Shown: piece by piece, positions 2,677-63,485 of the stretch
Numbering within the stretch: position 1 is the stretch's first letter
How the letters are laid out: each line of letters starts with the position of its first letter
Origin: Gemmatimonadales bacterium
GTDB taxonomy: Bacteria; Gemmatimonadota; Gemmatimonadetes; Gemmatimonadales; GWC2-71-9
DNA: 64,000 nucleotides
Assembly: GCA_038209515.1 (NCBI GenBank)
Contig: JBBQXQ010000004.1
Location: 1,078-65,077 of the forward strand
Direction of reading: 5' to 3'
The notes under the pieces: model-generated
Told to the model about the DNA's origin: nothing
Seen by the model: the letters and a program-made list of their open reading frames with translations, nothing else
Databases searched by the model: none
Made by a program: the position numbers and the translations under genes

Positions 2677-3570
2677 GTGACAATCAAGGCACGTAGCAAG
2701 CGTCGCCCGGTGCGACCGGCGCAGATCGCTCGTGCAATCGATGAGGGTCGCGAGAGTCTCGATCTGTACCTGGACGAGATCAGCCGGGTTCCCCTCCTCA
2801 ACCGTGAGGAGGAGATGGAACTCGCCCGTAAGGCGTTCAAGGGCAATGTGACGGCCCAGGAAAGGCTGGCTCGCCACAATGTGCGCTTTGTGGTCTCCGT
2901 GGCCAAGAAGTTCCAGAATCGTGGAGTACCCCTGGTGGACCTGATCGGCGAGGGGAACCTCGGCCTCATGACCGCGGCCCGCAAGTTCGATCCCGATCGC
3001 GGCGTCAAGTTCATTTCCTATGCAGTCTGGTGGATCCGGCAGGCGGTGCAGGCCGCTATCGCGCGGCATGGCCGTCCGGTCCGGGTACCGCTCAATCGTA
3101 CGGCGGATCTCAGCCGGCTTGGTCGGACCACGACCCTGCTGAAGGATCGGCTGGGCCGGATGCCAACCACCGAGGAGCTGGCCCGGGCAACCGGACTGAC
3201 CGTCGAGGCGGTGCGTTCCCTCAGCGCCCTCAATTCCGAGGCGGTTCGGCTCGACCATCCCACCAGGGACGGCGAAGGCAACGAGCGGATCGAACGCTTC
3301 ACCAGCGGCGAGCAGGAAAGCACCGACATGACGACCATGGCCAACAGCCAGACGCGGGATATCGAGGCGGCCCTCGCCGCCCTCCCGCCGCGGGACGCTA
3401 AGGTGCTTCGGCTCTACTTTGGGCTGGACGACGGCAACAGCCGCACGCTCGAGGAAATCGGCCGCATGATGGGGGTTACCCGTGAGCGGATCCGTCAGCT
3501 GCGGGACCGCGCCCTCCTCCGCCTGCGCGAAGGCGAGACCGGAGACCGGCTGAAGGATCTGGTGGCCTAA
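2677..3570 (+). CDS. RNA polymerase sigma factor, sigma-70 family (RpoD/SigA-like, regions 1.2-4, no long region 1.1)
   Basis: Region 2 (NVRFVVSVAKKFQNRGVPLVDLIGEGNLGLMTAARKFDPDRGVKFISYAVWWIRQAV), region 3 and region 4 (TLEEIGRMMGVTRERIRQLRDRAL) are all present. The ORF is open from GTG 2629. I prefer GTG 2677 because it is preceded by GGAG 8 nt upstream. Confidence 0.9.
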   Translation: MTIKARSKRRPVRPAQIARAIDEGRESLDLYLDEISRVPLLNREEEMELARKAFKGNVTAQERLARHNVRFVVSVAKKFQNRGVPLVDLIGEGNLGLMTAARKFDPDRGVKFISYAVWWIRQAVQAAIARHGRPVRVPLNRTADLSRLGRTTTLLKDRLGRMPTTEELARATGLTVEAVRSLSALNSEAVRLDHPTRDGEGNERIERFTSGEQESTDMTTMANSQTRDIEAALAALPPRDAKVLRLYFGLDDGNSRTLEEIGRMMGVTRERIRQLRDRALLRLREGETGDRLKDLVA

Positions 3571-3573
3571 GAA

Positions 3574-3695
3574 GCTATTGGCCATTAGCTATTAGCTACG
3601 CCGATGCGCTAGAGACCCTCCGATGCTCGGGGGGTTTCTTGTTAGAGCCAATAGCCAACAGCTAATAGCTAATAGCTAATAGCTAATAGCTAATA
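3574..3695. repeat. inverted arrays of AT-rich heptamers (GCTATTA x3-4 at 3574-3601; GCTAATA x7, 5 perfect, at 3647-3695) bracketing a terminator hairpin
   Basis: Direct reading. The left array is the reverse complement of the right array. It starts 3 nt after the sigma-factor stop and ends 14 nt before the next ATG. Confidence 0.9.
3615..3643 (+). terminator. rho-independent terminator after the sigma-factor gene
   Basis: 9-bp stem ACCCTCCGA / TCGGGGGGT (one G-U pair), 3-nt loop, then TTCTTGTT. Confidence 0.6.
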
Positions 3696-3709
3696 GCCGA
3701 TCGCCTCAA

Positions 3710-4042
3710 ATGAAAACCACCCCCATCCCCCACGCCATCAACCGGCGCGACGACGGCCTCCTCATCGAGTGGGACGAGCGCGGTCACCAGGGATTCTTTC
3801 CTGCTCGTTCACTTCGCCTCGCGTGCCCGTGCGCCGGCTGTGTCGAGGAGATGAGCGGACGACCGTTGCTCGATCCCGCCAGGGTGCCGCGCGATATCCG
3901 CCCGGTGTCGCTCCAGTTGGTCGGCGCCTACGGCCTGCGCATCAACTGGAGCGATGGACATGAGACCGGCATCTACACCTTCGAGCAGCTGCTCCGAAGC
4001 TGTCCATGTTCCAGCTGCAGGGGTCAGCCTGCTACGGAGTGA
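3710..4042 (+). CDS. DUF971 family protein (gamma-butyrobetaine hydroxylase-like N-terminal domain)
   Basis: 110 aa. LACPCAGCVEE ... INWSDGHETGIYTFEQLL ... CPC is the pattern I recall for DUF971. Confidence 0.75.
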   Translation: MKTTPIPHAINRRDDGLLIEWDERGHQGFFPARSLRLACPCAGCVEEMSGRPLLDPARVPRDIRPVSLQLVGAYGLRINWSDGHETGIYTFEQLLRSCPCSSCRGQPATE

Positions 4043-4123
4043 CCCCCGACACATCCAGCTCCCCGCTGCCGGAACAATCTGTACCGCGGACGCAGCGGTC
4101 GCGATTCAACCGGCGGGGCAACC

Positions 4124-5263: not shown

Positions 5264-8008
5264 GTGCGTCGCGGATTGCTCTCCATTGGTCCCGCGTTCC
5301 TCCTGTTGTGCGTCCTTTCGACATCACCGCTCCTGGGGCAGCTCGAGCCACCGTCCACGGGCGGAGCGGTCGCGCTCGACCAGGAGCTTCGAATGCTGGG
5401 GCACTACAAGCGGGTTCTGATGATCGGCGCCCACCCCGACGACGAGGATACGGAGCTGCTGACGATCCTCGTCCGCGGCCTGGGCACGGAAGCGGCCTAT
5501 CTCTCACTCAACCGGGGCGAGGGTGGACAGAATCTCATCGGCCCCGAGCTGGGTGAAGCGCTCGGGCTGATCCGTACTGAAGAGCTGCTTGCCGCGCGCC
5601 GACTCGACGGCGCGCGGCAGTATTTCACCCGGGCATACGATTTCGGTTATTCCAAGACTCTCGATGAGACGTGGCAGCACTGGCCACGGGATACCATCCT
5701 CAAGGACGTCGTCAGGATCGTCCGCAGGTTCCGACCTCAGATCATTGTTTCGATCTTCAGTGGAACGCCCCGTGATGGCCACGGCCAGCATCAGGCGGCG
5801 GGCTGGTCGGCCCAGGAGGCGTTCCGCGCGGCGGGAGACTCCACCCGGTTTCGTGAGCTGTTCCGGGAAGAGGGACTCCTTCCCTGGAGTCCCCTCAAAC
5901 TGTATCGGAGCACCCGATTCGACAGCGCCGCCACCACGCTGACCTTGAACGGTGGGGTGCTCGATCCGGCTGTCGGCAAGTCGTTCCATCAGATCGCCAT
6001 GGCCGGGCGGAGCCTGCACCGATCCCAGGACATGGGTCAGCTGCAGCGGATCGGCCCCTCCAACGTACGACTGGCCTTGGTGGAAGACCGGACGGCTGGG
6101 GGAGGCGATGCCAAAGGCGGGCTGTTCTCGGGGGTCGATACCAGCATGGCGGCCATTCCACTGGGTGAGCGGCGTGTGGGTGGGTCGGCCACGCTCGTAC
6201 TCGCCGGAAACCCGACGACCGGTTTGGCCAGCTACCAAGCCCGGGTCGATTCGGTCATGGCCGCGCGTGGGAACCTGTCGCGCCAGCGCAGCCTGCTCGC
6301 GCGTGCCGCGTCCGACCTCGGGCGGGCAGTGGCGGAGCCACCTCGAGCGGGCGCGGGAGGCGGAGGGGCCTACTACACTCGCGGCATCGAGTTGGAGGAC
6401 CAGCTCGGGCATCTCAACGCGGCGGCCTGGCATCTGGGCCGGGTCGTGTTTGATGCCGTCATAGAGGACGACCGGGTCGTAGCAGGACAGAGGCTTCGCT
6501 GGACGCTGTCGACCTGGAACGCCTCGGATGAGCCACGCCTGGCAGACATGCGGGCAGCGGAGTGCATTCCTTTCGGCGAGTGTCAGGGGCCGGAGCCGGA
6601 TTCCGTGCCGCTGACCGTCCAACCGGGGCAGGTCGGGACGGTCGCTGCCGAGTATCAGGTTCTCGAGCAGCCGCCCTCCACTCCCTATTTCCTCCGCTTG
6701 CCTCGAGATGGGGATCTCTATCGCTGGCCGGACCAGCACCGATTGAGTCTCACCGGCGGCCCGCCCTACGGTGAGCCGTTCGAGCCTCCCACCTTCCTGG
6801 GATCGGTCGAGGTGAATGCCGGACAAGGGGACAGCCTGGGCGCCTCACAGATGACAGAGGCGGTGTTTCGATTCAACGATCAGGCGCGGGGAGAGGTGCG
6901 CCGGCCGGTCACCGTGGTCCCGCGCATCGATGTTAAGCTCGATCCGGCCACCGAGGTGTGGCCGACCGGCTCGCTCACGCCGCATCGCTTCACCGTCACG
7001 CTCACCCACGGCGCCAGGGACTCGACCTCCGGCACCGTGCGTCTGCAACTCCGTCGCGGCTGGCCAGCGGTAGCGTCGCAGCACTTCCGCTTCGCCCGGG
7101 AGGACGAGCGCGAAAGCTTCATCTTCGAGGTAAGACCGCCCGCTCGCCTCGCGCCCGACAGCGGCGAAATTCGCGCCGTGGCGCAGGACCTGGAGGGCAC
7201 TACGTACGACGTAGGCATGTATACCGTCGACTACCCTCACATCAGGCCCCGCTCCTACACCAGGCTCGCGACGACCACACTCCGGGTTGCCCCTCTGATC
7301 CTGCCTCGACTCACCCGCGTCGGCTACATTCGCGGCGCTGCCGACCAGGTGCCCGAGGCACTCGCCAGCGTGGGAGTTCCCGTCACGCTGCTCGGCGGAG
7401 CGGCGCTCGAGCGCGGGAGGCTCGATCGGTACGATGCCATCGTGGTCGGGCCGCGGGCGTACGAGACGGATTCGGCACTGGTGGAGAACAACCGGCGCCT
7501 TCTCGACTACGCCCGTCGAGGCGGTCTCCTCATCGTGCAGTATCAGCAGCACCAATTTTTCAGCGGCCGGTTTGCTCCCTATCCCATGACGGTCGGTGGG
7601 CAGCCGTTGCGCCTGGAGGAGCCGGCGCCGGGCCGGCCGGGGTCCGCGCCCGCGCGGGCTGCTCCGCCGGTGAGCCACGATCGGGTCACCGACGAAAACG
7701 CGCCGGTCAGGCTGGTCGCACCCGATCATCCGGCGGTGCGTGCCCCCAACCGGCTGAGCGCAGCGGACTGGAAGGGTTGGGTCCAGGAGCGTGGACTCTA
7801 CTTCGCCCGAACCTGGGACCGCCGGTACCGGCCGGTTCTGGAGACCCACGACCCCGGCGACGCGCCGCTTCTCGGCGGACTTCTGGTCGCGCCGGTCGGG
7901 AAGGGAACCTACGTCTACACCGGCCTGAGCTTCTTTCGGCAGTTGCCTGCGGGGGTGCCGGGCGCATTTCGGCTGTTCACGAATCTGTTGGCGCTTGGGA
8001 AGAAATGA
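5264..8008 (+). CDS. PIG-L/LmbE family deacetylase fused to a large C-terminal region (ThuA/class-I amidotransferase-like end)
   Basis: GTG start with a signal peptide. LmbE motif MIGAHPDDEDTELL...LNRGEGGQN. C-terminal segment YDAIVVGPRAYE...GGLLIVQYQQ. Confidence 0.75.
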   Translation: MRRGLLSIGPAFLLLCVLSTSPLLGQLEPPSTGGAVALDQELRMLGHYKRVLMIGAHPDDEDTELLTILVRGLGTEAAYLSLNRGEGGQNLIGPELGEALGLIRTEELLAARRLDGARQYFTRAYDFGYSKTLDETWQHWPRDTILKDVVRIVRRFRPQIIVSIFSGTPRDGHGQHQAAGWSAQEAFRAAGDSTRFRELFREEGLLPWSPLKLYRSTRFDSAATTLTLNGGVLDPAVGKSFHQIAMAGRSLHRSQDMGQLQRIGPSNVRLALVEDRTAGGGDAKGGLFSGVDTSMAAIPLGERRVGGSATLVLAGNPTTGLASYQARVDSVMAARGNLSRQRSLLARAASDLGRAVAEPPRAGAGGGGAYYTRGIELEDQLGHLNAAAWHLGRVVFDAVIEDDRVVAGQRLRWTLSTWNASDEPRLADMRAAECIPFGECQGPEPDSVPLTVQPGQVGTVAAEYQVLEQPPSTPYFLRLPRDGDLYRWPDQHRLSLTGGPPYGEPFEPPTFLGSVEVNAGQGDSLGASQMTEAVFRFNDQARGEVRRPVTVVPRIDVKLDPATEVWPTGSLTPHRFTVTLTHGARDSTSGTVRLQLRRGWPAVASQHFRFAREDERESFIFEVRPPARLAPDSGEIRAVAQDLEGTTYDVGMYTVDYPHIRPRSYTRLATTTLRVAPLILPRLTRVGYIRGAADQVPEALASVGVPVTLLGGAALERGRLDRYDAIVVGPRAYETDSALVENNRRLLDYARRGGLLIVQYQQHQFFSGRFAPYPMTVGGQPLRLEEPAPGRPGSAPARAAPPVSHDRVTDENAPVRLVAPDHPAVRAPNRLSAADWKGWVQERGLYFARTWDRRYRPVLETHDPGDAPLLGGLLVAPVGKGTYVYTGLSFFRQLPAGVPGAFRLFTNLLALGKK

Positions 8009-9045
8009 CGGTCTTCTCCGCCTTCTCCGTCTTTTCAGCCCTCTCCGCCTTCTCCGCCCTTTCCGCCTGTCGAGGCGACGCACGTACCCCCGTCGTCCTC
8101 TATTCACCCCACGGTCGGGACCAGTTGGCCCTGCTGGAGCACGCGTTCGAGGCCCGACGGCCGGACATCGATGTGCGCTGGCTGGATATGGGCTCGCAGG
8201 AGATCCTCGACCGTTTGCGTTTCGAGCGGGTCAATCCGCAGGCCGATGTCTGGTTCGGCGGGCCGGCCTCGATCTTCGATCGCGGGATCCAGGACTCGCT
8301 GCTGGTGCCCTACCGTCCGGTGTGGGCCGGCAACGTGGAGCGCCGAGGAGCCGGCCCCCGGGATCTCTACTATCCGGTCTACCGGACGCCGGCGGTGATC
8401 GCCTTCAACAGCCGGGCGGTGCCTCGCCGGGACGCGCCCCAGGACTGGGACGACGTGCTGGAGCCCCGCTGGAAAGACAAGGTCATCATCCGGGATCCCA
8501 TGGCTAGCGGAACGATGCGTGCCATCTGGGGGCTCATCCTGCTGCGCAGCCTGCGTCAGACCGGAGACACGGCCCAAGGCATGGCCTGGCTTCGGCGGTT
8601 GGATGGCCAAACCAAGACCTATACCATCAGCCCTGCGCTGTTGTACGAGAAGCTTGCTCGCCAGGAGGGGCTGATAAGCCTCTGGGATCTTCAGGACATC
8701 CTGATCACCCAGGCCAAGGGCATGCCGCTGGGCTACGTCTTTCCCCGGAGCGGCACCGTGGTCATCGACGATGGCATCGGGCTGGTGCGCGGTAGCCGGC
8801 ACCCTGAGGCCGCCCGCGCATTTATCGACTTCGTCGGCAGCGAGGAAGCGCAGCTGCTCGCCGCTCGGCGGGTATTCCGGCTCCCGGCTCGGACCGACCT
8901 TCCGGCCGATTCGGTGCCGTCATGGGTGGCCGACGTCGAGCGTGACATGGTCGTCGCCGACGTGGATTGGGGTCTATTCTCCAAACAGGGGCCGGCGTGG
9001 ATGAGCTACTGGGATCAGCATGTGCGTGGGACAGGGAAGCGGTGA
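8005..9045 (+). CDS. ABC transporter substrate-binding lipoprotein (Fe3+/thiamine-type, FbpA/AfuA-like)
   Basis: The ATG overlaps the upstream stop (ATGA). Lipoprotein signal MTVFSAFSVFSALSAFSALSAC. Body VVLYSPHG...DVWFGGP...VIDDGIGLV. The long 6958 ORF in the track is an out-of-gene upstream extension. Confidence 0.85.
   Translation: MTVFSAFSVFSALSAFSALSACRGDARTPVVLYSPHGRDQLALLEHAFEARRPDIDVRWLDMGSQEILDRLRFERVNPQADVWFGGPASIFDRGIQDSLLVPYRPVWAGNVERRGAGPRDLYYPVYRTPAVIAFNSRAVPRRDAPQDWDDVLEPRWKDKVIIRDPMASGTMRAIWGLILLRSLRQTGDTAQGMAWLRRLDGQTKTYTISPALLYEKLARQEGLISLWDLQDILITQAKGMPLGYVFPRSGTVVIDDGIGLVRGSRHPEAARAFIDFVGSEEAQLLAARRVFRLPARTDLPADSVPSWVADVERDMVVADVDWGLFSKQGPAWMSYWDQHVRGTGKR
8011..8064. repeat. 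6 x 9-bp tandem array (GCCTTCTCC-type) encoding the signal-peptide h-region
   Basis: Units are gtcttctcc, gccttctcc, gtcttttca, gccctctcc, gccttctcc, gccctttcc. This is the reverse complement of the GGCGGAGAA array at 57395-57439. Confidence 0.9.
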
Positions 9046-18727: not shown

Positions 18728-18795
18728 TAGTCTAGGATCTAGAGTCTACCGCATCCCGCAGCCCTTCTCTCATTTAGACCCTAGACCCTAGAGAA
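18728..18795. repeat. inverted CTAG-containing heptamer arrays (TAGTCTA GGATCTA GAGTCTA ... TAGACCC TAGACCC TAGAGAA)
   Basis: Direct reading. The left array (18728-18748) starts at the first base after the infA stop. The right array (18775-18795) is its reverse-complement type. Confidence 0.85.
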
Positions 18796-18829: not shown

Positions 18830-18850
18830 AGACGCTCACCGTGAGGTGCG

Positions 18851-25213: not shown

Positions 25214-25218
25214 TCTCA

Positions 25219-25355
25219 GCGGGGAAGCGGGGAAGCGGGGAAGCGGGGAAGGAACGCTAAGCCTGGAGACAGACCGGATAAAGGGGTAGCAAGCGTGGCG
25301 GTCACGTACCCACCGACGCATCCTTCCCCGCTTCCCCGCTTCCTGGCTTCCCCGC
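25219..25355. repeat. inverted pair of (GCGGGGAA)4 arrays separated by ~70 bp, filling the queE-HD intergenic region
   Basis: 25219-25250 is 4 perfect 8-mers. 25324-25355 is ttccccgc, ttccccgc, ttcctggc, ttccccgc. The right end abuts the queE stop codon and the left end is 6 nt from the HD start codon. Confidence 0.95.
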
Positions 25356-25991
25356 TTACGGAATCCCGAGAAGCTTATGCGTCTGCAGGCTGAGCCGCCA
25401 GCGCGGGTGGGCCAGGCAGTATTGAAGGGCGGCCGAGGTGTTGGCCTCGCGGTCGGGTCCATCCATCGGCTGGAGGAAGTAGTGGCGGAACCCGAGCCGC
25501 TCGAACTGGTCCGGTGCCGTCCCGGCCTGCGGGAAAACCAGCTTGATCTCATCGCCACGGGTGACAACCAGCTCGGCCCCGGCCTTGGGGCTCACGCAGA
25601 GCCAATCGATGCCATTCGGGGCCGGCAGGGTCCCGTTGGTCTCGACCGCGATCTCGAAGCCTTCGCCGTGCAGGGCCTGGACCAGCTCCGAGTCCAACTG
25701 GAGGAGCGGCTCACCGCCGGTACAGACCACGAAGCGACGGCCAGACTCGGCCGGCGGCCAAGCGGCGGCTACCGCGGCCGCGAGCTCCCCGGCCGAGGCG
25801 AACCGTCCCCCACCGGGACCATCCGTGCCGACAAAATCGGTATCACAAAACTGGCAGGTGGCCTGGTGGCGGTCCTGCTCTCGCCCGCTCCACAGGTTGC
25901 AGCCGGCAAAGCGGCAGAACACCGCGGCCCGCCCAGTGTTGGCCCCTTCGCCCTGGAGGGTGTAGAAGATCTCTTTGACGGAATACGTCAT
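25356..25991 (-). CDS. queE: 7-carboxy-7-deazaguanine synthase (radical SAM)
   Basis: EIFYTLQGEGANTGRAAVFCRFAGCNLWSG...C-x-FCDTDF. Confidence 0.92.
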   Translation of the reverse strand: MTYSVKEIFYTLQGEGANTGRAAVFCRFAGCNLWSGREQDRHQATCQFCDTDFVGTDGPGGGRFASAGELAAAVAAAWPPAESGRRFVVCTGGEPLLQLDSELVQALHGEGFEIAVETNGTLPAPNGIDWLCVSPKAGAELVVTRGDEIKLVFPQAGTAPDQFERLGFRHYFLQPMDGPDREANTSAALQYCLAHPRWRLSLQTHKLLGIP

Positions 25992-26075: not shown

Positions 26076-26086
26076 ACTCATCGCGC

Positions 26087-26791
26087 TCACCGCTTACCGC
26101 TTACCTGATACATCGCTGGATCCTCCAGCCCCGCTTCCCGGAACCCTTTAAGTCTGAGCACACACGCGTCGCACCGGCCGCATGCGGCACCATCGGAACT
26201 CGGATCGTAGCAGGTAAGGGTGAGGCCGTAGTCCACGTCCAACGCCAGGCCGCGCTCGATGATCTCACGCTTGGAGAGCGAGATCAGGGGGGTGTGGATC
26301 GTCATCCTGCGCCCCTCTTCGACCCCCGCTCGTGTGGCCAGGTTGGCCAGCTCCTGAAAGGCGCGCATGTATTCCGGCCGGCAGTCGGGGTACCCGCTGT
26401 AATCCATGGCGTTCGCGCCCATGAAAATGTCGGATGCGCCAAGCACCTCGGCCCAACCCAGCGCAAACGCCAGGAAGATCGTGTTGCGGGCCGGCACGTA
26501 TGTCGGGGGAATTCGCTGGCCGATCTCTTCCAGCGGGGTGTCCTTCGGCACGTCCAGCTCCCCAGTGAGGGCCGAACCGCCGAAGGCGCGAAGATCGATG
26601 TCGAGGACGACGTGCTTTCGGATACCCAGACGCTCGGCGACCCGTCGCGAAGCCTCCAGCTCGGCCGCGTGCCGCTGGCCGTACCGGAAGGTAAGGGCAT
26701 GCACATCGAATCCCCGATCGAGCGCGATGGCCGCGGTGGTGGCTGAGTCCATCCCGCCGCTCAGGAGCACCACCGCCGTGGGTTTTGTCAT
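26087..26791 (-). CDS. queC: 7-cyano-7-deazaguanine synthase
   Basis: [15 protein letters not shown], plus the C-terminal Zn cluster C-x2-C-x-C-x2-C region ([10 protein letters not shown]). Confidence 0.95.
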
Positions 26792-31198: not shown

Positions 31199-31201
31199 GG
31201 A

Positions 31202-31312: not shown

Positions 31313-31332
31313 TAGCTGACGTCCTCTCTAGG

Positions 31333-36877: not shown

Positions 36878-36945
36878 GCCGGACGGGCGGACAGGCGGAC
36901 AGTTGTTAAATTTTGTCATTCTGAGTGCAGCGAAGAATCCCTCAA
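36878..36945. repeat. (GCCGGACG GGCGGACA GGCGGACA) 8-mer array followed by a half REP-like element (GTCATTCTGAGTGCAGCGAAGAATCCCTC)
   Basis: Direct reading. Same 8-mer unit as 63049-63072. Lies in the divergent gltA / M28 peptidase intergenic region. Confidence 0.85.
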
Positions 36946-36947: not shown

Positions 36948-38525
36948 ATGAAGGCACCCTTGCTCATTCGACACTTCGCCGGCCTGCTGGTGCTCATTGC
37001 AGCCAATCCCGCTGCCGCCCAGTCCAGCGTCGATACTGCGGGTGCCGGGGCCCTGATCGATCAGGCCATGAATCACTCCGAGGTGATGCAGAATCTCCAG
37101 CACCTGAGCGATGTCATCGGGCCTCGTCTCTCCGGCTCACCGGCGATGCGACGCGCCAACGAGTGGACCGCGGAGCGGTTCAGATCCTACGGCCTTACGG
37201 CCGCCCTGGAGCCGTACACCTTCGGCGTCACCTGGGAGCGAGGGTCCACCACCGTCCGGCTCCTGGCCCCCTTTTCCCGCGAGATCACCGCCCACAGCTG
37301 GGCCTGGACCGACGGCACGGGAGGCAAGACCCTGAGCGGTCCCGTCGTCCTCACCGATCTCTCGACTCCGGAGAGCCTGGCGGTCTACCATACCAAGGTG
37401 AAAGGCGCCTGGGTGCTTCCCAGGGCTCCGTTCCCCACCTGGAATCCCGATGGTCCGCCGATGACCGCGGCCGACTCCGCCGACGTCCAGGCACAGATCA
37501 AGTTCCGGGGGAGCCCGTTCGCCGACACCTCTGCCGCGGCGGTGGCGGCTCGTCGCCAGTACCAGATCGATCTGTCCTATATCCTCCAGGCCGCCGGCGC
37601 GCTCGGCACCCTCATCGATGGCGCCAAGGACCATGGGCTCATGACGATGAGCGGCTCGCCGACTCGGGTGTCGCCGTTGCCCAGTGTGGTGATCTCGCAT
37701 GAGGACTACACCCTCCTTACCCGGCTTATCGGGGCGGGAGGGACACCCCGCCTCGTCGCCAGGATCGAAAACCGCATCGGCAAGACCCCGGTCCAGCAGT
37801 GGAACACGGTGGCCGAGCTCAAGGGGACCGAGCGGCCCGGCCAGGTCGTGATCCTCGGTGCCCACCTGGACAGTTGGGATCTCGGCACCGGTACCACCGA
37901 CAATGGCACCGGCTCGATGGTGGTGCTCGAGGCGGCCCGGGCCCTGGCGCAGTCCGGGCTCAAGCCGAAGCGCTCGATCCGCTTCATTCTGTTCAGTGGG
38001 GAGGAGCAGGGGTTGCTCGGCTCACGCGCCTACGCCGAGGCTCATGCCGGTAGCGCCGACAGCATCCAGGCCGTGCTGGTGCTGGACAATGGCACCGGGG
38101 CCATCACGGGCCAGGCACTACAGGGGCGGAAGGATTTGGAGGGTCTCTGGGAGCAGCTCCTGGAGCCGGTGGCGTCGCTCGGCGCCGACAGCGTGCGGGA
38201 CGCCAACAAGAGCGGCACCGACCATCTCTCGTTCCTACCCTATGGCGTGCCTGGGTTCAACTTCGATCAGATCTCCAGGGGATACAATCACACCCATCAC
38301 TCGCAGACCGATACGTACGACAAGGCTGTTGCGGGCGATCTTAAGCAGGCGGCGGCGGTCATGGCGGTCACGGCATATGAGCTGGCGAACCTGCCCGAGC
38401 TGTTGCCGCGTGGGACGAAGAGTCCGGTGATGCCGGTGCCGACGAAGCCGTCGCCCGGATTGGCGGTACGGCGGTACGGCGGTACGGCGGCGAGGCGGTA
38501 CGGCGGTGAGGCGGTACGGCGGTAG
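36948..38525 (+). CDS. M28 family metallopeptidase, exported
   Basis: ATG 36948 with a signal peptide. Motifs VILGAHLDSWDLGTGTTDNGTG, FSGEEQGLLGS, DHLSF. The last 21 codons and the stop are encoded by an 8-mer array. Confidence 0.85.
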   Translation: MKAPLLIRHFAGLLVLIAANPAAAQSSVDTAGAGALIDQAMNHSEVMQNLQHLSDVIGPRLSGSPAMRRANEWTAERFRSYGLTAALEPYTFGVTWERGSTTVRLLAPFSREITAHSWAWTDGTGGKTLSGPVVLTDLSTPESLAVYHTKVKGAWVLPRAPFPTWNPDGPPMTAADSADVQAQIKFRGSPFADTSAAAVAARRQYQIDLSYILQAAGALGTLIDGAKDHGLMTMSGSPTRVSPLPSVVISHEDYTLLTRLIGAGGTPRLVARIENRIGKTPVQQWNTVAELKGTERPGQVVILGAHLDSWDLGTGTTDNGTGSMVVLEAARALAQSGLKPKRSIRFILFSGEEQGLLGSRAYAEAHAGSADSIQAVLVLDNGTGAITGQALQGRKDLEGLWEQLLEPVASLGADSVRDANKSGTDHLSFLPYGVPGFNFDQISRGYNHTHHSQTDTYDKAVAGDLKQAAAVMAVTAYELANLPELLPRGTKSPVMPVPTKPSPGLAVRRYGGTAARRYGGEAVRR

Positions 38526-44420: not shown

Positions 44421-44460
44421 CTTACCGGCCCTTCGCTGCGGTCGCCTTACCGCTCACCGC

Positions 44461-46320
44461 TTATCGCTCCTTTACCATCCCCGTCTCCAGCCAGGAATGC
44501 TCTCCCTTCAGCACCTGCTGAGCCACCGCGTAGGTCCGCACGTCGTCGTTGTCGAACACCGCCTCGAAGCGTTCCGCGACCCGGCGGCGCGCCTGCCAGC
44601 TGAAGAGGCCGGCCAGCTCGACCGGGCCCCGATTGGTCGGATCCTTCTTGTACATGGAGTACGCCTTGGAGCACGCCGCGGTGATGGCCAGGAGCTCGGC
44701 GCCGATCTCGACCAGTCTTCCCAGCACCGCCTGGCGCTTCTCCAGCTTCGGCCCAAACCGGACCATGCAGTGGAAGAGCGTGCGGGCCAGACGGCGGCAT
44801 GAACGCGATACGAAGCGGACATGGGTGGCCAGCGGACCGAATTCGCTGTACCGCGGTATGCGTCCCCAACCCAGCCAGAGCTTGGGATACCAGTAGGCGT
44901 AGTAGGCGCCCGAGCGGAGCAAGGCCTGGATCTTCTTCGCCATCGGCGCCTTCGGGTCGATCAGGTCGCCAGCGAGCTTGAGATGGGTATCCACCGCTTC
45001 GCGGGCGATGAACAGCCGCATGATCTCGCTGGACCCCTCGAAGATCAGGTTGATGCGATAGTCCCGCATCATGCGCTCGATCGGGTCGGGGCGCTCGCCC
45101 CGGCTCCTCAGGCTGTCCGCGGTCTCGTAGCCGCGGCCGCCCTTGATCTGGAGCGTGTCATCCACGATCCGCCAACCGGTCTCGGTGTTCCACATCTTGG
45201 CCATGGCGGCCTCGAGCCGGATGTCTGCGTCGCCCCGGTCGGCCATGAGGGAGGCGAGGTCGGACACGGCCTCCATGGCGAAGATCTCTGCCGCCATCCG
45301 GCCGATCTTCTGGGCGATGGCGTCGTGCTTCCCGATCGGTTGACCCCATTGCACCCGCTTCGCGGCCCAAATCCGCACGATCTCCAGGCACCGCTTGGCG
45401 CCGGCGACGGCCGAGGCGGGCAGCGTGAGCCGACCGGTGTTGAGGGTGATCAGCGCCAGCTTGAGCCCTTTCCCCTCGCCCCAGAGCACGTTCTCGACCG
45501 GGACCTTCACGTTGGTGAAGCGGATGATCCCGTTCTCCAGCGCCTTCAGTCCCATGAAGTGGAGCCGCTGCACCACCTCCACGCCGGGCCAGTTCGTCTC
45601 TACGATGAAGGCCGTGATCTTCTTCGGGCCGGTCCGCGCCATCACGACCATTAGCTCCGCGATGGTGCCGTTGGTGCACCAGAGCTTCTCGCCGTTGAGA
45701 ACGTAGCTCTTACTGTCTGCCGAGAGCGTGGCGGTGGTGCTGAGCGCCGCCGGGTCGGAGCCCACCTGGTTTTCGGTGAGCGCGAAGGCAGACACCGCGC
45801 CTGCGGCCAGGCGGGGCAAGTACTTCTTCTTCTGCGAAGGAGTGCCGAACAGCTTGAGCGGCGTGGGGACGCCAATGGACTGCGCCGCGGAGAGCAGGGC
45901 AGTGAGGTTGCCGTCCTGGCTGGTTACCAAACCGACAGCGTGGGTGTAGCTGTACTGGCTCAGCCCGAGTCCGCCGTATTCGACCGGGATCTTGATGCCG
46001 AACGCGCCGATCTCACCCAGTCCCCTGACGATATCGGTGGGAATCTTCCCGTCGCGATCGATCTTGTCGCTGTCCACCCGCTCCTGCATGAAGCGCTCGA
46101 GCTTCTCCATGAACGGCTTGGCCCGCGCGAGATCGGCCGGGTCCGGCTCGGGGAACGGATGCACCAGGTCGAGCCGGAACGAGCCCTCGAACAGCTCCCG
46201 CACGAAGCTGGGCGACTCCCACTCCTTCTCCCGCGCGGCCTCGGCGACATCGCGCGCCTCCTGCTCGGTGGCGAGCGGAGTAGGGGTCAATCGGTCGGGA
46301 CCGGCGAGAACGTCAGTCAT
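44461..46320 (-). CDS. acyl-CoA dehydrogenase family protein (long, FadE-like with C-terminal extension)
   Basis: 619 aa. ACAD N/M/C-domain pattern (ALTENQVGSDPAAL, GEKLWCTNG, QIKGGRGYE). Confidence 0.88.
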   Translation of the reverse strand: MTDVLAGPDRLTPTPLATEQEARDVAEAAREKEWESPSFVRELFEGSFRLDLVHPFPEPDPADLARAKPFMEKLERFMQERVDSDKIDRDGKIPTDIVRGLGEIGAFGIKIPVEYGGLGLSQYSYTHAVGLVTSQDGNLTALLSAAQSIGVPTPLKLFGTPSQKKKYLPRLAAGAVSAFALTENQVGSDPAALSTTATLSADSKSYVLNGEKLWCTNGTIAELMVVMARTGPKKITAFIVETNWPGVEVVQRLHFMGLKALENGIIRFTNVKVPVENVLWGEGKGLKLALITLNTGRLTLPASAVAGAKRCLEIVRIWAAKRVQWGQPIGKHDAIAQKIGRMAAEIFAMEAVSDLASLMADRGDADIRLEAAMAKMWNTETGWRIVDDTLQIKGGRGYETADSLRSRGERPDPIERMMRDYRINLIFEGSSEIMRLFIAREAVDTHLKLAGDLIDPKAPMAKKIQALLRSGAYYAYWYPKLWLGWGRIPRYSEFGPLATHVRFVSRSCRRLARTLFHCMVRFGPKLEKRQAVLGRLVEIGAELLAITAACSKAYSMYKKDPTNRGPVELAGLFSWQARRRVAERFEAVFDNDDVRTYAVAQQVLKGEHSWLETGMVKER

Positions 46321-47457: not shown

Positions 47458-52122
<4,665 letters not shown>

Positions 52123-54171: not shown

Positions 54172-54174
54172 ACA

Positions 54175-55878
54175 ATGACTGAAACCCTGACCGGCTCTCA
54201 AATCCTCTGCCGCGCGCTGCTGGAGCAGGGAGTCGACGTCCTGTTCGGGTATCCCGGCGGCGCGATCATGCCGTTCTATCACGCCTTGCCCGAGTATCCC
54301 GGCCTGCGCCACGTGCTGGTGCGGCACGAGCAGGCCGCCGCCCACGCAGCCGACGGGTACGCCAGGGCGAGCGGACGCGCCGGTGTGTGTGTCGCGACCT
54401 CGGGTCCCGGGGCGACGAACCTGGTCACTGGCCTTGCCACCGCCCATATGGACAACGCGCCCGTGGTTGCGATTACCGGACAAGTCGCTCGGGCCATGAT
54501 GGGCCGGGACGCGTTCCAGGAGACCGACATCATCGGGATTACCCAGCCGATCACCAAGCACAACCGGCTGGTGGAGGACGTCGAGGAGCTGGAGGACGCC
54601 GTGGCAGAGGCCTTCTACGTCGCACAGGAAGGCCGGCCGGGCCCGGTGCTGATCGATATTCCGAAGGACGTGCAGAATCAGAAGGCGGAGTGGAAAGGCG
54701 GTCAGGCGGTCAGGCGGTCAGGCGGTCACTTGGAATCGACCGACCGACCGCCCGTCCGCCCGCCGGGCCTCGAAGACGCCACTCGTCTGATCGCCGAGGC
54801 CCAGCGTCCCCTCATTATGGCGGGTCACGGTGTCCTGCTCTCGAATGCCTACGCCGAGCTTCGTGCTCTGGCCGAGCGCACCGGGATTCCGGTGATCACC
54901 ACGCTGCTTGGGATCAGCGGATTCCCGGAGTCGCATCCACTCCACCTGGGTATGCCGGGGATGCACGGCGAGGTCCACGTCAATCGCGCCATCCAGCAGG
55001 CCGATCTCATCATCGGACTCGGCCTCCGATTCGACGACCGGGTGACTGGCAACCTCGCGGGCTTCGCGCGCGGGGCCAAGGTCATTCACGTGGACCTCGA
55101 TCCGTCCGAAATCGGCAAGAATGTGCCAGTCGCAATCGGGATCGTGGGCGACGTGCGGGCGGTGTTATGCTCGCTGCTGGATATGGTAGCGCCGCGACAT
55201 TGCGACGCGTGGCGGGAGGAAATCGCCGGGTTCGTCCGGCCTCGGCAGGAGGCCTTTCGGGGAGGACTGACTCCAGAGACTATCCTCGATGCCATCGACG
55301 GGGCTACCTCGGGCCGCTGCTCCATCGTCTCGGATGTGGGCCAGCATCAGATGTGGGTCGCCAAGCTCTTTCGTTATCAGCGTCCCAACAGCCACATCAC
55401 CTCCGGCGGTCTCGGCACGATGGGGTTCGCCGTACCGGCCGCGATGGGCGTGGCCCTGGCACGGCCGGATGAACCGGTGTGGGCGATCTCGGGCGACGGC
55501 GGTTTTCAGATGAACATGCAGGAGATGGCGACGATGGTGCAGGAAGGGATCCCGGTGAAGATGGCGATCTTCAACAACGGATACCTTGGCATGGTGCGGC
55601 AGTGGCAGCAGTTCTTCCATGGTAAGCGCTACTCGGCGACCCCGATCTGGAGTCCCGACTATGTGCGGCTGGCTGAGGCCTATGGCATTGCCGGCTGGCG
55701 GGTGGAGTCGGCGGATCAGGCCCAATCCGTGGTCCGCGAGGCGACGGCCCAACCCGGTCCGGCCCTGGTGGAGTTCGTCATCGAGCAGGAGGCGAACGTC
55801 TACCCCATGATTCCGCCGGGTGGCTCTCTCTCGGAGCCGATCGAGGGCGAACCTGTGCCGCCACTGGTGCCCGCATGA
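54175..55878 (+). CDS. ilvB: acetolactate synthase large subunit (biosynthetic type)
   Basis: ThDP enzyme pattern (GYPGGAIMPFYHAL, GPGATNLVTG, GLGTMGFAVPAAMG, GDGGFQMN). Confidence 0.95.
   Translation: MTETLTGSQILCRALLEQGVDVLFGYPGGAIMPFYHALPEYPGLRHVLVRHEQAAAHAADGYARASGRAGVCVATSGPGATNLVTGLATAHMDNAPVVAITGQVARAMMGRDAFQETDIIGITQPITKHNRLVEDVEELEDAVAEAFYVAQEGRPGPVLIDIPKDVQNQKAEWKGGQAVRRSGGHLESTDRPPVRPPGLEDATRLIAEAQRPLIMAGHGVLLSNAYAELRALAERTGIPVITTLLGISGFPESHPLHLGMPGMHGEVHVNRAIQQADLIIGLGLRFDDRVTGNLAGFARGAKVIHVDLDPSEIGKNVPVAIGIVGDVRAVLCSLLDMVAPRHCDAWREEIAGFVRPRQEAFRGGLTPETILDAIDGATSGRCSIVSDVGQHQMWVAKLFRYQRPNSHITSGGLGTMGFAVPAAMGVALARPDEPVWAISGDGGFQMNMQEMATMVQEGIPVKMAIFNNGYLGMVRQWQQFFHGKRYSATPIWSPDYVRLAEAYGIAGWRVESADQAQSVVREATAQPGPALVEFVIEQEANVYPMIPPGGSLSEPIEGEPVPPLVPA
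54684..54764. repeat. inverted 8-mer arrays inside ilvB: (GGCGGTCA)4 at 54697-54728, 9-nt spacer, degenerate CGACCGCC-type array at 54738-54764
   Basis: Direct reading. Translated in frame as GGQAVRRSGGHLESTDRPPVRPPG, in the linker between the Pyr domain and the central domain. Confidence 0.9.
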
Positions 55879-56381: not shown

Positions 56382-57481
56382 CCACGCCAGTGCGGGTGTA
56401 CTACGATGCCGACGCCGACCAGAGCCGCCTGGACGGCCGCACCTTTGCCATCATCGGGTATGGCAGCCAGGGACACGCCCACGCCTTGAACCTCCGGGCA
56501 AGCGGAGCAGACGTCATCGTGGGACTGCGGCGCGGCGGAGGATCATGGGAACGTGCCCGTGCCGCGGGTCTCGACGTCCAGACGGTGGCCGAAGCAGCGG
56601 AGGCCGCCGACGTGATCATGATGCTGGTGCCGGACCAGGACGCCCGCGCCATCTATGAAGGCGGCGTCGTGCAGGGCCTTCGACCGGGCAAGACGCTGAT
56701 GTTCGCTCACGGGTTCAATGTGCACTATGGCGAGATCGTGCCACCCGATGGGGTCGATGTCTCGATGGTCGCGCCCAAGTCTCCCGGTCATCTGGTGCGG
56801 AGTGAGTTCGAAGCCGGCCGGGGGGTGCCTGGTCTGGTCGCCGTGCATCAGGACGCAAGCGGGGAAGCTTTGGCCAACGCACTGGCATACGCCGCCGGGA
56901 TCGGTTGCACCCGGGCCGGGGTCATCGAGACCTCCTTTCGGGAGGAAACAGAGACCGACCTGTTCGGCGAGCAAGCGGTGCTCTGCGGCGGCGTCACCGC
57001 ACTGGTCAAGGCCGGTTTCGAGACCCTCACCGCTGCGGGCTACCGGCCGGAGATGGCCTACTTCGAATGTCTCCACGAGCTCAAGCTCATCGTGGACCTC
57101 ATGTACCGGGGTGGCCTCCAGTTCATGCGCTACTCGATCAGCGATACGGCGGAGTACGGCGATTACACCCGCGGCCCCCGGGTGATTACAGAGGAAACGC
57201 GGGCGGAGATGCGCCGGATTCTCGATGCCATCCAGGACGGCTCCTTCGCCCAGGAGTGGCTGGCAGAGAACCGAGCCGGGCGGGCCAACTTCGACCGGCT
57301 TCGGAAGGCCGACCACGACCACGAGATCGAGCGGGTCGGGGCCGAGCTCCGGGCCATGATGCCGTGGTCCGAGGAAGGGAAGCGGGGTGGTAAGACGGAG
57401 AGGACGGAGAAGGCGGAGAAGCCGGAGAAGGCGGTGAAGTCGAAACGGCCTCACCGTCCCGCGCACCCGCTGCCTCGCTGA
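56378..57481 (+). CDS. ilvC: ketol-acid reductoisomerase (class I) with Lys/Glu-rich C-terminal tail
   Basis: [16 protein letters not shown] and the KARI C-domain. The tail [31 protein letters not shown] lies beyond the usual end. Confidence 0.95.
57395..57439. repeat. 5 x 9-bp tandem array (GCGGAGAAG-type) encoding [15 protein letters not shown]
   Basis: Units are acggagagg, acggagaag, gcggagaag, ccggagaag, gcggtgaag. Confidence 0.9.
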
Positions 57482-60788: not shown

Positions 60789-61315
60789 TGCACTCCGAGG
60801 TACACTCGCGAGAATCCTATACCGAGGGCAAAAAGAGCAGCCAGCACCAGGGCGGCTCGCCGAAGCGCCGGTGATGGCCACGGCGCCGCCCACGCGATGA
60901 TGCCGAGTCCAAAGATGATGGGCGCCAGCATGCTGTGGCCGGATGGGTAGGAGAACCAGCCCGCTCCGTGCATGAGGCGGGGAATGACGTGGGGACGAGG
61001 ACGATGCACCGCCAGCTTTGCCAGCCCAGAGAGCGCCCAGCCGCTGAGCGCAGCAGCCGCGTACCACCACGCCTCGACTTTCCGCTTCCTGAGGACAAGC
61101 CCCAGGATGAGCAGCAGCGCGAGCGGTATCTCGATCAATCCGGAGCCCGCGACGCTCAGCAGCTTCATCCACCATGTGAGCCAGGGCTCACGTTTGGCGG
61201 CCAGGGCCAGCATGAGCGTCCGGTCCCAGGTGTCCGCCACGCCGGCAAGGACGGCGGCCGTCAACCCGAAGAAGAGGACCAGGCAGATGATGGCGAGCAC
61301 CCGGTAGCCGACCAC
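60692..61315 (-). CDS. PAP2 family phosphatase (membrane)
   Basis: [14 protein letters not shown] and [12 protein letters not shown] motifs. Confidence 0.85.
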
Positions 61316-61352
61316 CTCACGGGAGCGCTGCGGCCCGAGCGCTGCAGGCGGC

Positions 61353-63029
61353 CTAGAGATCGGTCACCGCGCCAATGCTCGCGCTCGAGACCTGCTTGGC
61401 ATACTTGTACAGCACGCCGGCCGTGTACCGCGGCTTCGGCGGGGTCCACGCCTTGCGTCGTCTCGCCAGCTCCGGCTCGGAGACCTCGAGCTCGAGCAGC
61501 CGGCGTTCGGCATCGATGGTCACTCGATCGCCCTCCGCGACCAGCGCGATGGTTCCTCCGACCGCCGCCTCCGGGGCCACGTGCCCCACCACCATGCCGT
61601 AGGTCCCACCCGAGAACCTGCCGTCGGTGATGAGACCGACCGAGTCGCCGAGTCCGGCTCCGATGATGGCCGAGGTGGGCGCGAGCATCTCCCGCATTCC
61701 CGGCCCGCCGCGGGGGCCCTCATAGCGAATCACCAGCACATCGCCGGCTCGAATGTTCCCTGCCAGAATCGCCTCGAGGCAGCTCTCCTCCGAGTCAAAG
61801 ACTCTGGCGGGCCCGCTGATGCGCGACTTTTTTATCCCCGTGATCTTCGCGACTGCGCCTTCGGTCGCGAGGTTTCCCCGCATGATTGCGAGATGGCCCT
61901 GGGGATAGAGCGGACGGCCCCACGGGCGGATGACTTCCTGATCGGCGCGCGGTTCCGGAGGCACGTTGGCCAGCGATTCGGCGATCGTTTCGCCCGTAAT
62001 CGTCAGCGCATCTCCGTGGAGAACACCGTGGGTCAACAGGATCTTCATGACTTGCGGTATTCCGCCGGCGCGGTGGAGATCGGTCGCCACAAAGCGGCCC
62101 GATGGCTTCAAATCGCACAGCACCGGCACCCGGGCGCGAATGGTCTCGAAGTCGTCGAGCGAGAGCGGGACGCCGGCCGCACGGGCGATCGCCAGCAGAT
62201 GCAGCACGGCGTTGGTTGACCCGCCGATCGCCATTACAACCGCGATCCCATTCTCGAACGCTGGACGAGTGAGAATCTGCCGGGGCCGGAGCCGCCGCCG
62301 AATCGCGTCGACCAGTACATTGCCCGAATTCGCAGCACTCTCCGCCTTCTCCCCATCCTCCGCCGCCATGGTGGACGAGAAGGGAAGGCTCATTCCCATG
62401 GCCTCGAACACCGAGGACATGGTGTTGGCGGTGAACATCCCGCCACACGATCCCTTGCCCGGGCATGCCCGGCGCTCGACCTCGAGCAGCTCGCGGTCGT
62501 CAATCGTGCCGGCGCTGTGTTGTCCTACCGCCTCGAACGCGCTTACCACGGTGAGGTCTCGGCCGGCATAGTGCCCTGGCTTGATGGTCCCCCCATAGAC
62601 GAAAATCGCCGGTATATCCATCCGCGCGATGGCGATCATGGCGCCGGGCATGTTCTTGTCGCACCCGCCGACCGCAAGTACCCCGTCCATACTCTGGGCT
62701 CCGCAGGCCGTCTCGATCGAATCGGCGATGACCTCGCGGGAGACGAGCGAATATTTCATTCCCTCGGTGCCCATTGAGATCCCGTCACTGACTGTGATCG
62801 TCCCAAACATCTGCGGCATGGCTCCCGCAGCCCGCACCGCCGCTTCCGCGCGACGGGCCAGCTCGTCGAGTCCAGCATTGCAGGGGGTGATGGTGCTGTG
62901 GGCGTTGGCGATGCCGACGATGGGCTTCCCGAAGTCCCCATCCCCGAAGCCGACGGCGCGGAGCATCGCTCGATTGGGCGCGCGTTGGACGCCCTCGGTG
63001 ATTGCGCTGCTTTTGAGTTTGTTGGGCAT
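61353..63029 (-). CDS. ilvD: dihydroxy-acid dehydratase
   Basis: 558 aa with [20 protein letters not shown] and the IlvD/Edd pattern. Confidence 0.96.
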
Positions 63030-63040
63030 CCGTGGAATGT

Positions 63041-63123
63041 ACGGGGCGGGCGGACAGGCGGACAGGCGGACGGGCGAGTACTCCTCATCCCGTTCCTTCA
63101 GTACTGTCCGCCTGTCCGCCCGC
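63041..63123. repeat. inverted (GGCGGACA)n arrays around an AGTACT...AGTACT core, between the glnK stop and the ilvD start
   Basis: 63049-63072 is ggcggaca, ggcggaca, ggcggacg. 63105-63120 is tgtccgcc x2. Both arms also contain AGTACT. Confidence 0.9.
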
Positions 63124-63485
63124 TACGCCGGCATGGCCACCGCTGGGGTTACGGCGGATTCGTTCCGCTCGCCGGTCCGGATCCGGTAAACCTGGGCCAC
63201 GTCGAGGACGAACACCTTGCCGTCGCCGACTTCGCCGGTGCGAGCGCCGCCGAGAATCGCATTGATGGTTACCTGTACGAACGGCTCGGAAACGCCGATC
63301 TCGAGGCGGACCTTCTCCTGCAGTTCGACCTTGACGGTGGTGCCGCGGTAGGTCTCGACGTGCTCGGTCTCGCCACCGTGCCCGAGCACCCGGGAGACAG
63401 TGAGGCCGCGAACTTCGGTGCGGTACAGCGCCTCCAGCACCTCGTTGAGACGGTCCGGGCGGATGATTGCTACGATGAGCTTCAT
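63123..63485 (-). CDS. glnK: P-II nitrogen regulatory protein (GlnK-type, linked to amtB)
   Basis: MKLIVAIIRPDRLNEVLEAL...GHGGE..ETYRG (T-loop Tyr)...DGKVFV. ATG 63485. Confidence 0.9.
   Translation of the reverse strand: MKLIVAIIRPDRLNEVLEALYRTEVRGLTVSRVLGHGGETEHVETYRGTTVKVELQEKVRLEIGVSEPFVQVTINAILGGARTGEVGDGKVFVLDVAQVYRIRTGERNESAVTPAVAMPA

Follow-up and report, generated by a model that had tools for sequence, protein, structure and literature searches.

Short tandem arrays with near locus-specific units, many of them paired as hairpins, fill intercistronic spacers and protein linkers in Gemmatimonadales

A 64-kb stretch of DNA from a Gemmatimonadales bacterium (the window, by which we mean the whole stretch analysed; about 65% G+C) contains dispersed head-to-tail arrays of 7-9-bp units, many of them beside stop codons. 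Eight different units occur in these 64 kb, and the question is how one architecture comes to be written in so many sequences and what holds it in place. A first-pass annotation had reported 11 array loci, and all are present when the window is searched with Tandem Repeats Finder (TRF; score threshold 30) and each locus is read directly, one of them (44440-44465) with only about three degenerate copies. The eight stop-codon coordinates given there are all right, and Pfam bears out the gene names (sigma-70, PIG-L, IF-1, queE-like radical-SAM protein, QueC, M28 peptidase, acyl-CoA dehydrogenase and P-II). Our data set comprises the window and 80 related loci (L001-L080), 1.34 Mb in total; further relatives for the queE, queC and infA sites (L081-L084, L087 and L088) are metagenome contigs from the Joint Genome Institute (JGI). 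Judging by a scan with the ilvB-like protein against one genome per species (the best matches have 89% identity when aligned in full and 95% in a partial alignment), the window falls within soil Gemmatimonadales.

The arrays are far more numerous than chance would produce. TRF finds 137 arrays of at least three copies at period 7 and 120 at period 8, compared with 39 and 41 at periods 6 and 9, and the near-perfect arrays number 74 (period 7) and 71 (period 8) versus 2.0 and 0.7 in order-2 Markov simulations, an excess of about 40- to 100-fold. Their units are highly diverse (73 canonical 7-mers and 54 canonical 8-mers), and 92 of 125 8-mer arrays contain GCGG. The GCGG-core 8-mer arrays are clade-specific, their density falling from 2.1 per 10 kb in the nearest relatives to 0.07 at 70-74% ilvB identity; the density of 7-mer arrays is constant at about 1 per 10 kb in all ilvB-identity bins across L001-L080. 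The suspicion that such arrays might be assembly artefacts can be set aside, because they recur at orthologous positions in 80 independent metagenome-assembled genomes (MAGs) and in JGI metagenome contigs, because loci taken from Mb-scale contigs (390 kb) hold 37 period-7 arrays, 41 period-8 arrays and 21 pairs, and because all 81 ilvB genes stay in frame through their arrays.

Many arrays have a reverse-complement partner. Such a partner lies within 200 bp of 71% of 7-mer arrays and 44% of 8-mer arrays, compared with a direct partner for 1-6%. Under a strict definition, which itself requires complementarity, there are 76 clean inverted pairs, with spacers of 3-131 nt (median 34) and arms of about 31 bp (about four copies each); the stems are about 90% Watson-Crick, as the pair definition already demands. 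The outcome is a long hairpin whose arms are register-tolerant arrays. Five of the five or six inverted pairs originally counted in the window are borne out; the four intergenic ones fold as long hairpins (z from -5.5 to -10), and the single arrays of the window show no structure on RNA folding. The hairpins are not canonical intrinsic terminators, because no U-tract follows the 3' arm (T fraction of 0.24 in the next 8 nt; at least four T in only 5 of 48). The sequence between the arms is not shared: by BLAST, 41 of 50 spacers have no relative anywhere in the 1.34 Mb, and among the other nine, five have matches that trace to dispersed palindromes resembling repetitive extragenic palindromic (REP) elements and the rest match one another as orthologous spacers (two pairs of loci). 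Counting k-mers revealed no common spacer motif.

Placement relative to genes was counted in intergenic regions 30-600 bp long, of which elements occupy about 24% of co-directional, about 14% of convergent and about 3% of divergent ones, proportions that hold when the gene-score threshold is varied. Elements in co-directional regions sit at a median of 5 bp from the upstream stop and 20 bp from the downstream start; those at most 5 bp from a stop or overlapping it number 48 of 79, compared with 15 of 79 for a start. Anchoring on stop codons had been claimed at eight loci, together with a proposal to compare distances to stops with null placement. That comparison confirms an association: 37 of 66 elements (those with non-negative slack) lie at most 5 bp from a stop, versus 15.3 under uniform placement and 27.5 under a null that reserves 15 nt before the start for the ribosome-binding site. 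Two of the eight cases are weak or incidental (the PIG-L array, which lies inside the next gene, and the acyl-CoA dehydrogenase stretch), and the stop codon is not an anchor in itself. Elements fill the whole stop-to-start spacer, the stop and start sides are balanced once the ribosome-binding site is allowed for (42 versus 37), and the median slack of elements in co-directional spacers is 28 nt. The stop association is statistically real, but filling of the intercistronic spacer is the better description.

Placement is also not restricted to 3' ends, since arrays fill interdomain linkers, C-terminal tails and a signal peptide as well. The 8-mers (and 9-mers) are frequent within open reading frames (ORFs) where Pfam domains end, that is, in linkers and C-terminal tails. 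The in-gene sites are the ilvB linker between TPP_N (6-121) and TPP_M (200-331), the tails of ilvC, the M28 peptidase and QueC, and interdomain segments of gltB; relatives have arrays at matching in-gene positions, composed of different units. Units of 8 bp inside genes could cause frameshifts. The intact frame of 81 of 81 ilvB ORFs rules out that in-gene arrays are left untranslated (by bypass or in an intron-like manner). In ilvB the G-rich array follows directly after the conserved ...QNQKAEW and the C-rich array stops before ...LEEAARL. Linker length is constant across all relatives (median 29-30 amino acids) while lag-8 self-identity climbs from a background of 0.33, seen at 70-74% ilvB identity, to 0.59 among the nearest relatives of the window, indicating that the periodicity replaced linker sequence and was not inserted. 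Between the window and L042 (95% amino acid identity) the differences fall at the same position of successive units without any length change, a case of concerted evolution that operates on the DNA and is indifferent to codon phase. Where an ilvB linker has both arms the G-rich arm comes first (16 of 16), and the arms differ by 1.75 mismatches per 8 positions within a genome versus 2.43 between genomes (p = 0.002).

Array extension is limited by the stop codon or a dispensable C-terminal tail, by the ribosome-binding site and by the edges of protein domains. Whether a region is translated matters, as shown by the strong dependence of partner-arm presence on context: pairs and singles number 51 and 32 in intergenic DNA, and 22 and 85 in coding sequence (Fisher p = 1.5e-8). 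Within coding sequence the arrays are simply translated as a low-complexity linker or tail, mostly without a partner.

The reading that we favour, at a probability of roughly 45%, is that these are arrays akin to short tandemly repeated repetitive (STRR) sequences, arisen in transcribed, unconstrained DNA through slippage or template switching and tolerated between cistrons where they fold into hairpins. The elements' anatomy, position, turnover, arm co-variation and context dependence are direct observations; the process behind them would be a lineage-wide replication slippage or template switching that acts on transcribed, otherwise unconstrained DNA and begins with tandem duplication of a short unit. 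Complementarity of the second arm would be maintained through intramolecular template switching, selection for pairing or a combination of the two, and in untranslated co-directional spacers it would mainly be the self-complementary form that persists. Folding would loop out the 100-150-nt insert and leave the stop and the next start about 25 nt apart, which would preserve translational coupling and the integrity of the operon mRNA. By analogy with hairpins of REP elements and bacterial interspersed mosaic elements (BIMEs), a modest mRNA-protecting effect is possible. With STRR sequences and long simple sequence repeats (SSRs) the arrays share dispersed head-to-tail 7-9-nt repetition far above chance, opposite-strand pairs with a variable spacer, enrichment between co-oriented genes, depletion between divergent ones and closeness to stops; they do not share the restriction to one or a few unit families per genome.

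The same placements could instead reflect selection on the hairpins themselves, which in operon mRNA would serve as blocks to 3'-to-5' exonucleases, as RNase III sites, or in coupling or uncoupling translation, like REP/BIME hairpins, with tandem periodicity being the easiest evolutionary route to a long, register-tolerant stem. Occupancy of co-directional and convergent rather than divergent regions would be expected on this account, as would placement from the stop to just before the ribosome-binding site, the very stable folds, the partner arm found mainly outside coding sequence and, among relatives, the compensatory changes between arms and the presence of some hairpin between queC and queE in every one. 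Mismatches on the sense strand, however, show no excess of G.U over A.C (27 versus 36 in intergenic pairs, 16 versus 20 in pairs within coding sequence), and there is hence no positive signature at the RNA level. Moreover, presence or absence often varies among close relatives, even beside essential genes; infA already has a sound terminator hairpin downstream of its element; the same arrays are also found within genes, where they are translated; and the arrays have a polarity (described below) that is absent from ordinary hairpins. Selection of this kind seems to us possible but rather unlikely. The earlier suggestion of 3'-UTR or intercistronic stabilizing stems is plausible, but neither a G.U wobble bias nor a U-tract speaks for it.

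A comparison of orthologous sites for presence and absence, also proposed at the outset, shows that elements come and go between relatives. In the window glnK and amtB overlap, and most relatives have 8-16 bp between them (the glnK|amtB junction); L005, L006 and L011 instead have 134-182 bp, occupied by a (GGCTATK)n hairpin. The spacer of this hairpin is inverted between two of these genomes (L005:18835-18882 versus L011:18869-18916, with 18 nt matching at 100% in reverse orientation and the flanking genes running the same way in both), which implies recombination between the arms. At ilvC|leuC the genes usually overlap, and a few genomes have 39-47-bp arrays or 185-200-bp elements. Among metagenome relatives, the arms between queE and the HD-domain gene always begin at the stop (TAA/TAG-GCGGGG) and finish at ...CCCCGCTGAGA-ATG, and they co-vary: GCGGGGAA/TTCCCCGC in the window and L083, GCGGGGCA/TGCCCCGC in L081, L082 and L087, and GCGGGACA/TGTCCCGC in L088. 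The element is absent from L084, and its spacer is unrelated between L083 and L082 despite proteins that are about 95% identical. The queC-queE interval of relatives is occupied variously by a 7-mer pair, by an 8-mer pair (GGCGGTAG), by a plain hairpin or by a single arm together with a REP-like palindrome; 3' of infA, the window and L088 have a GGGTCTA pair and L082 has a REP-like element instead. Between the window and L083 (flanking proteins 97-98% identical), copy numbers are equal and even an imperfect unit is shared; copy number differs between L035 and L052.

Gain and loss at such tight junctions (10-16 bp versus 134-200 bp) resembles insertion, as would be produced by non-autonomous mobile elements of the MITE type (miniature inverted-repeat transposable elements) or the REPIN type, with tandem-unit terminal inverted repeats and a preference for inserting at gene 3' ends. 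The recurrence of one unit family (GGGTCTA or GGCTATN, for instance) at loci that are not orthologous, in a single genome or in different ones, fits such elements, and so does the association and nesting of arrays with REP-like palindromes. The unique spacers, the dozens of unit families, the gain of periodicity by the ilvB linker at unchanged length and the lack of attC-like cores do not, and no transposase was seen nearby; a mobile origin is in our view highly improbable, and the stop-targeted element suggested at first is poorly supported by the spacer and ilvB results. Nor do the arrays match particular known elements. Their interiors are not conserved and linker arrays arise without length change, contrary to what defines a MITE; units and spacers differ between loci, contrary to REP/REPIN identity; both integron attC cores (R'' RYYYAAC and R' GTTRRRY) occur together in 0 of 76 pairs, whose flanks are syntenic housekeeping genes; and CRISPR does not fit.

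The inverted pairs are also polar. In 66 of 76 pairs the G-rich arm lies 5', independent of strand (binomial 8e-12), with G-rich-first counts of 38:9 for 7-mers and 25:0 for 8-mers. Ordinary intergenic hairpins without arrays stand at 28:32; the polarity is thus specific to the arrays, and a general rule that intercistronic hairpins begin G-rich is ruled out. A Chi-like reading, in which the G-first GCGG-core 8-mers would face a break located in the spacer, is at odds with the 7-mers. Tracts of three G occur only in some units (GCGGGGAA, GGGTCTA) and in most are lacking (GGCGGTCA, GGCTATT, GTGAACA, AGTCACG); a G-quadruplex (G4) explanation, which calls for at least four tracts of three or more G per array, fits only a minority of units. 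With polarity added, architecture and position are common to dozens of different units, which upholds the original argument for a common generating or selecting process over random slippage.

Polarity would also be natural if each unit were an oriented motif facing the spacer from both sides, as in a series of sites bound by an abundant DNA- or RNA-binding protein (nucleoid-associated or a global regulator), for which unit length would be the footprint and the inverted arrangement would allow dimeric or looping binding. This has been proposed for the paired tandem sites of Geobacter metallireducens, a literature precedent that is itself speculative (PMC2700814). The fixed period with about four copies per arm, the GCGG core in most 8-mer arrays (including those at non-orthologous loci of the window) and the sharing of unit families more within than between genomes are compatible with a binding site. 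We nevertheless regard a binding-site role as improbable: the 73 canonical 7-mer units are distinct and have no common core, unit and even period change between relatives at one orthologous site, the arms co-vary for complementarity and not for a motif, and no candidate protein was identified.

Several observations weigh against slippage or template switching. Divergent regions are longer than the others and yet almost empty, where neutral filler should occupy them; the G-first polarity is not predicted; and the preferred periods of 7 and 8 and the roughly four copies per arm are left unaccounted for. Unit families are shared between different sites more often within a genome (23.6%) than between genomes (10.5%; Fisher 6e-8), which may point to units spreading from locus to locus or to some factor specific to a genome. 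In addition, the positional results depend on our own codon-usage gene caller, whose stops are exact for real genes and whose starts are approximate. A more speculative proposal, which we hold to be quite unlikely, is a dedicated, sequence-agnostic hairpin-writing process in Gemmatimonadales (a fold-back or template-switching polymerase, or a system of structure-targeted non-autonomous elements). Such a process would install G-rich-first inverted arrays in transcribed, unconstrained DNA and copy units between loci of one genome; if it exists, it would explain why the polarity is strict, why the periods are fixed at 7 and 8 nt, why unit families are genome-specific and why GCGG-core 8-mers show a clade-specific burst (including those in protein linkers), and it would amount to templated mutagenesis or mobile DNA of a new class. 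More generally, should a specific enzymatic process lie behind polarity and periodicity, it would represent a new source of templated mutation.

Arrays comparable to these have reportedly been known from cyanobacteria as STRR heptamers since the work of Mazel and colleagues in 1990, and are said to form several families per genome, mostly non-coding and dispersed; long SSRs with units of 5-11 nt reportedly (Mrazek et al. 2007) have 7-nt units over-represented in non-pathogens with large GC-rich genomes. Inverted hairpins that fill intercistronic spacers are not, to our knowledge, a defining feature of STRR sequences, which belong to another phylum. We know of no established mechanism for any of the tandem-array relatives considered here, the cyanobacterial arrays having been noted since 1990. 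The first-pass annotation knew of no description of such arrays, but similar ones are on record for Geobacter metallireducens (PMC2700814) and for Xanthomonas and Nostoc (PMC4692102); a literature search for repeats in Gemmatimonadetes turned up nothing specific.

Geobacter metallireducens has 24, 21 and 8 pairs of 3-5 tandem 7-9-nt units on opposite strands at variable distance, one of them between proB and proA, as well as 49 GGACCGG x4 elements within and between genes, all absent from G. sulfurreducens, and the authors read the sites, speculatively, as binding sites of IHF/HU type (global regulators; Aklujkar et al. 2009, PMC2700814). The copy number, the opposite-strand pairing, the presence of several families and the location both between cistrons and within genes are alike; in Geobacter, however, a handful of families have 8-49 copies each, whereas here the units are nearly locus-specific, and the polarity, the filling from stop to ribosome-binding site and the orthologous turnover analysed here were not analysed there. 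In Xanthomonas and Nostoc, dispersed GGGAATC/GGGGAYT heptamers prefer about four units, are enriched between co-oriented ORFs and depleted between divergent ones, and mostly lie at most 50 bp from a stop codon (some overlapping it), with 70-75 inverted heptamer pairs per Xanthomonas genome and few in Nostoc, and with the repeat type (single or pair) conserved between species (Rehm et al. 2015, PMC4692102). The Gemmatimonadales arrays resemble them in the roughly four units, the co-oriented placement, the closeness to stops and the inverted pairs, but there each genome has one G3-containing unit, for which a G-quadruplex role was proposed (PMC4692102), and most units here (GGCTATT, GTGAACA, GGCGGTCA and others) cannot form G4. 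REP, BIME and REPIN sequences are likewise extragenic hairpins at 3' ends or between cistrons that occur as inverted doublets and can stabilize upstream mRNA (PMC3116915); the likeness extends to hairpin formation, extragenic location and inverted doublets, but they are conserved 20-40-nt palindromes in hundreds of near-identical copies mobilized by RAYT proteins, unlike the present tandem arrays without conserved sequence. TAACTGA direct repeats of Beggiatoaceae, Cyanobacteria and Bacteroidetes (2-6 copies, intergenic) are also heptamer arrays close to coding-sequence boundaries, but with a single unit, direct and not inverted, just upstream of start codons (MacGregor 2015, PMC4679880). Nostoc heptamers with regulatory effects have been described (bioRxiv 10.1101/2022.06.06.494920).

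Against this background, what sets the present case apart is the near locus-specificity of the units, the dominance of hairpin pairs that fill stop-to-ribosome-binding-site spacers, the polarity, the remodelling of protein linkers by 8-mer arrays without length change, and the comparative evidence for arm co-variation and turnover. Dozens of unrelated units in one architecture separate structure from sequence, and with hundreds of related MAGs one can trace, at orthologous sites, where elements were gained or lost, how their arms co-vary and where spacers were flipped. A hairpin in about a quarter of co-directional spacers matters for operon and terminator prediction and for quality control of MAG assemblies. 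Because arrays extend ORFs, they matter for the annotation of stops and starts, and they also remodel proteins (linkers, C-terminal tails and a signal peptide).

The array loci of the window are collected in Table 1, with the REP-like palindromes.

Table 1. Tandem arrays and REP-like palindromes in the 64-kb window
Position (arms)	Strand	Feature	Basis
3573..3697 (3573-3598 / 3646-3697)	+	Inverted 7-mer pair, AGCTATT x3.7 ... AATAGCT x7.4	TRF, sequence reading
8013..8068	+	9-mer array, CTTCTCCGC x6.2	TRF, reading, Pfam
18728..18792 (18728-18748 / 18775-18792)	+	Inverted 7-mer pair, TAGTCTA/GGATCTA/GAGTCTA ... TAGACCC x2.6 (GGGTCTA type)	TRF, reading
25218..25357 (25218-25251 / 25323-25357)	-	Inverted 8-mer pair, GCGGGGAA x4 per strand, 71-nt spacer	TRF, reading
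26084..26105	-	Single 7-mer array, GTAAGCG x3 (sense direction)	TRF, reading
36880..36902	+	Single 8-mer array, GGCGGACA x2.9	TRF, reading
38462..38524	+	Single 8-mer array, GGCGGTAC x7.9	TRF, reading
44440..44465	-	Weak degenerate periodicity of about 7 bp, about 3 copies	Reading; below TRF score 30
48345..48390	-	Degenerate 8-mer array in gltB, between Glu_synthase and GXGXG domains	TRF, Pfam
49549-49573		9-mer array in gltB, between central and Glu_synthase domains	TRF, Pfam
54696..54771 (TRF arms 54696-54728 / 54737-54762)	+	G-rich 8-mer array, GGCGGTCA x4, 8-nt spacer, imperfect C-rich reverse-complement array	TRF, reading
57392..57439	+	9-mer array, AAGRCGGAG x5.3	TRF, reading
63049..63122 (TRF arms 63049-63076 / 63104-63120)	-	Inverted 8-mer pair, GGCGGACA x3.5 ... 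CTGTCCGC x2+	TRF, reading
26005-26075		REP-like palindrome
31200-31318		REP-like palindrome
35380-35470		REP-like palindrome
36915-36945		REP-like palindrome
38528-38562		REP-like palindrome
44335-44435		REP-like palindrome

The four intergenic pairs illustrate how closely an element can fit its spacer. The one after the sigma-70 gene begins 2 nt past the stop (3568-3570) and finishes 12 nt short of an ATG at 3710, contains an inner hairpin in its 47-nt spacer, and has a predicted RNA fold of -64 kcal/mol (z = -6.25). The infA pair begins immediately past the infA stop (18725-18727; z = -5.45). The queE pair overlaps the stop of the queE-like gene (25356-25358), is separated by 4 nt from the start of the HD-domain gene (25213) and folds at -99 kcal/mol (z = -10), and the glnK pair (z = -8.97) begins at the glnK stop (63123-63125) and leaves 19 nt free ahead of the ilvD start (63029). 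The fifth pair, which is translated as the interdomain linker of acetolactate synthase (ilvB), folds more weakly (z = -2.6). An Rfam 15 scan of the window gave 0 matches at the gathering threshold.

Most of the remaining loci lie within genes. The QueC array codes the last six or so residues of the protein and has the stop (26087-26089) within it; its partner arm is present in L084 and L087 and is replaced in the window by a REP-like palindrome. The M28 peptidase array codes about the last 21 residues, with the TAG stop (38523-38525) in its final unit and a REP-like hairpin after it. The weak stretch at the end of the acyl-CoA dehydrogenase gene surrounds the stop (44461-44463) and adjoins another REP-like palindrome, and the single array in the divergent citrate synthase/M28 peptidase region has no stop nearby and is followed by a REP-like motif. 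The ilvC array codes the C-terminal tail of ketol-acid reductoisomerase beyond the end of KARI_C, at a position where relatives have 8-mer arrays or inverted pairs; at the gltB position 48345-48390, arrays are clearer in relatives. The 9-mers after PIG-L encode the lipoprotein signal peptide MTVFSAFSVFSALSAFSALSAC of a solute-binding protein gene (8005-9045), and the array abuts the PIG-L stop because the ATG of this gene (8005) overlaps that stop as ATGA. Over 8005-8070 the 9-bp repeat codes for the hydrophobic core and lipobox, (FSA/LSA)n-C, and a functional peptide is thus built by a DNA repeat.

Several other features were noted beside the arrays. GGGTCTA/TAGACCC units occur at non-orthologous loci: the infA pair of the window, the infA 3' region and the citrate synthase/M28 region of L088, and upstream of amtB in L009, L011 and L027; the spacers of these loci are unrelated within and across genomes. 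Between the convergent infA and cold-shock protein genes, downstream of the infA pair, lies a strong bidirectional terminator-like hairpin (AAAAAGGCCGCTC...GAGCGGCCTTTGTTT) at about 18797-18832. The 185-200-bp insertion at ilvC|leuC in L001, L004, L006 and L059 is flanked by inverted 8-9-mer arrays (for example, ACGGATGA...) and has an interior of about 130 nt with a core of about GTGTGCTGTTGA that is conserved across genomes; this interior may be a small RNA or a leader upstream of leuC.

The REP-like palindromes form a separate dispersed, intergenic family of REP/REPIN type, with cores such as GTCATCCTGAGCGnAGCGAAGGATC and CACCTCATCCCGAG...CTCGGGATGAGGTG. They often adjoin array arms, nest between arms or stand in for one arm, and they lie within array spacers in L003, L005, L006, L027 and L030.

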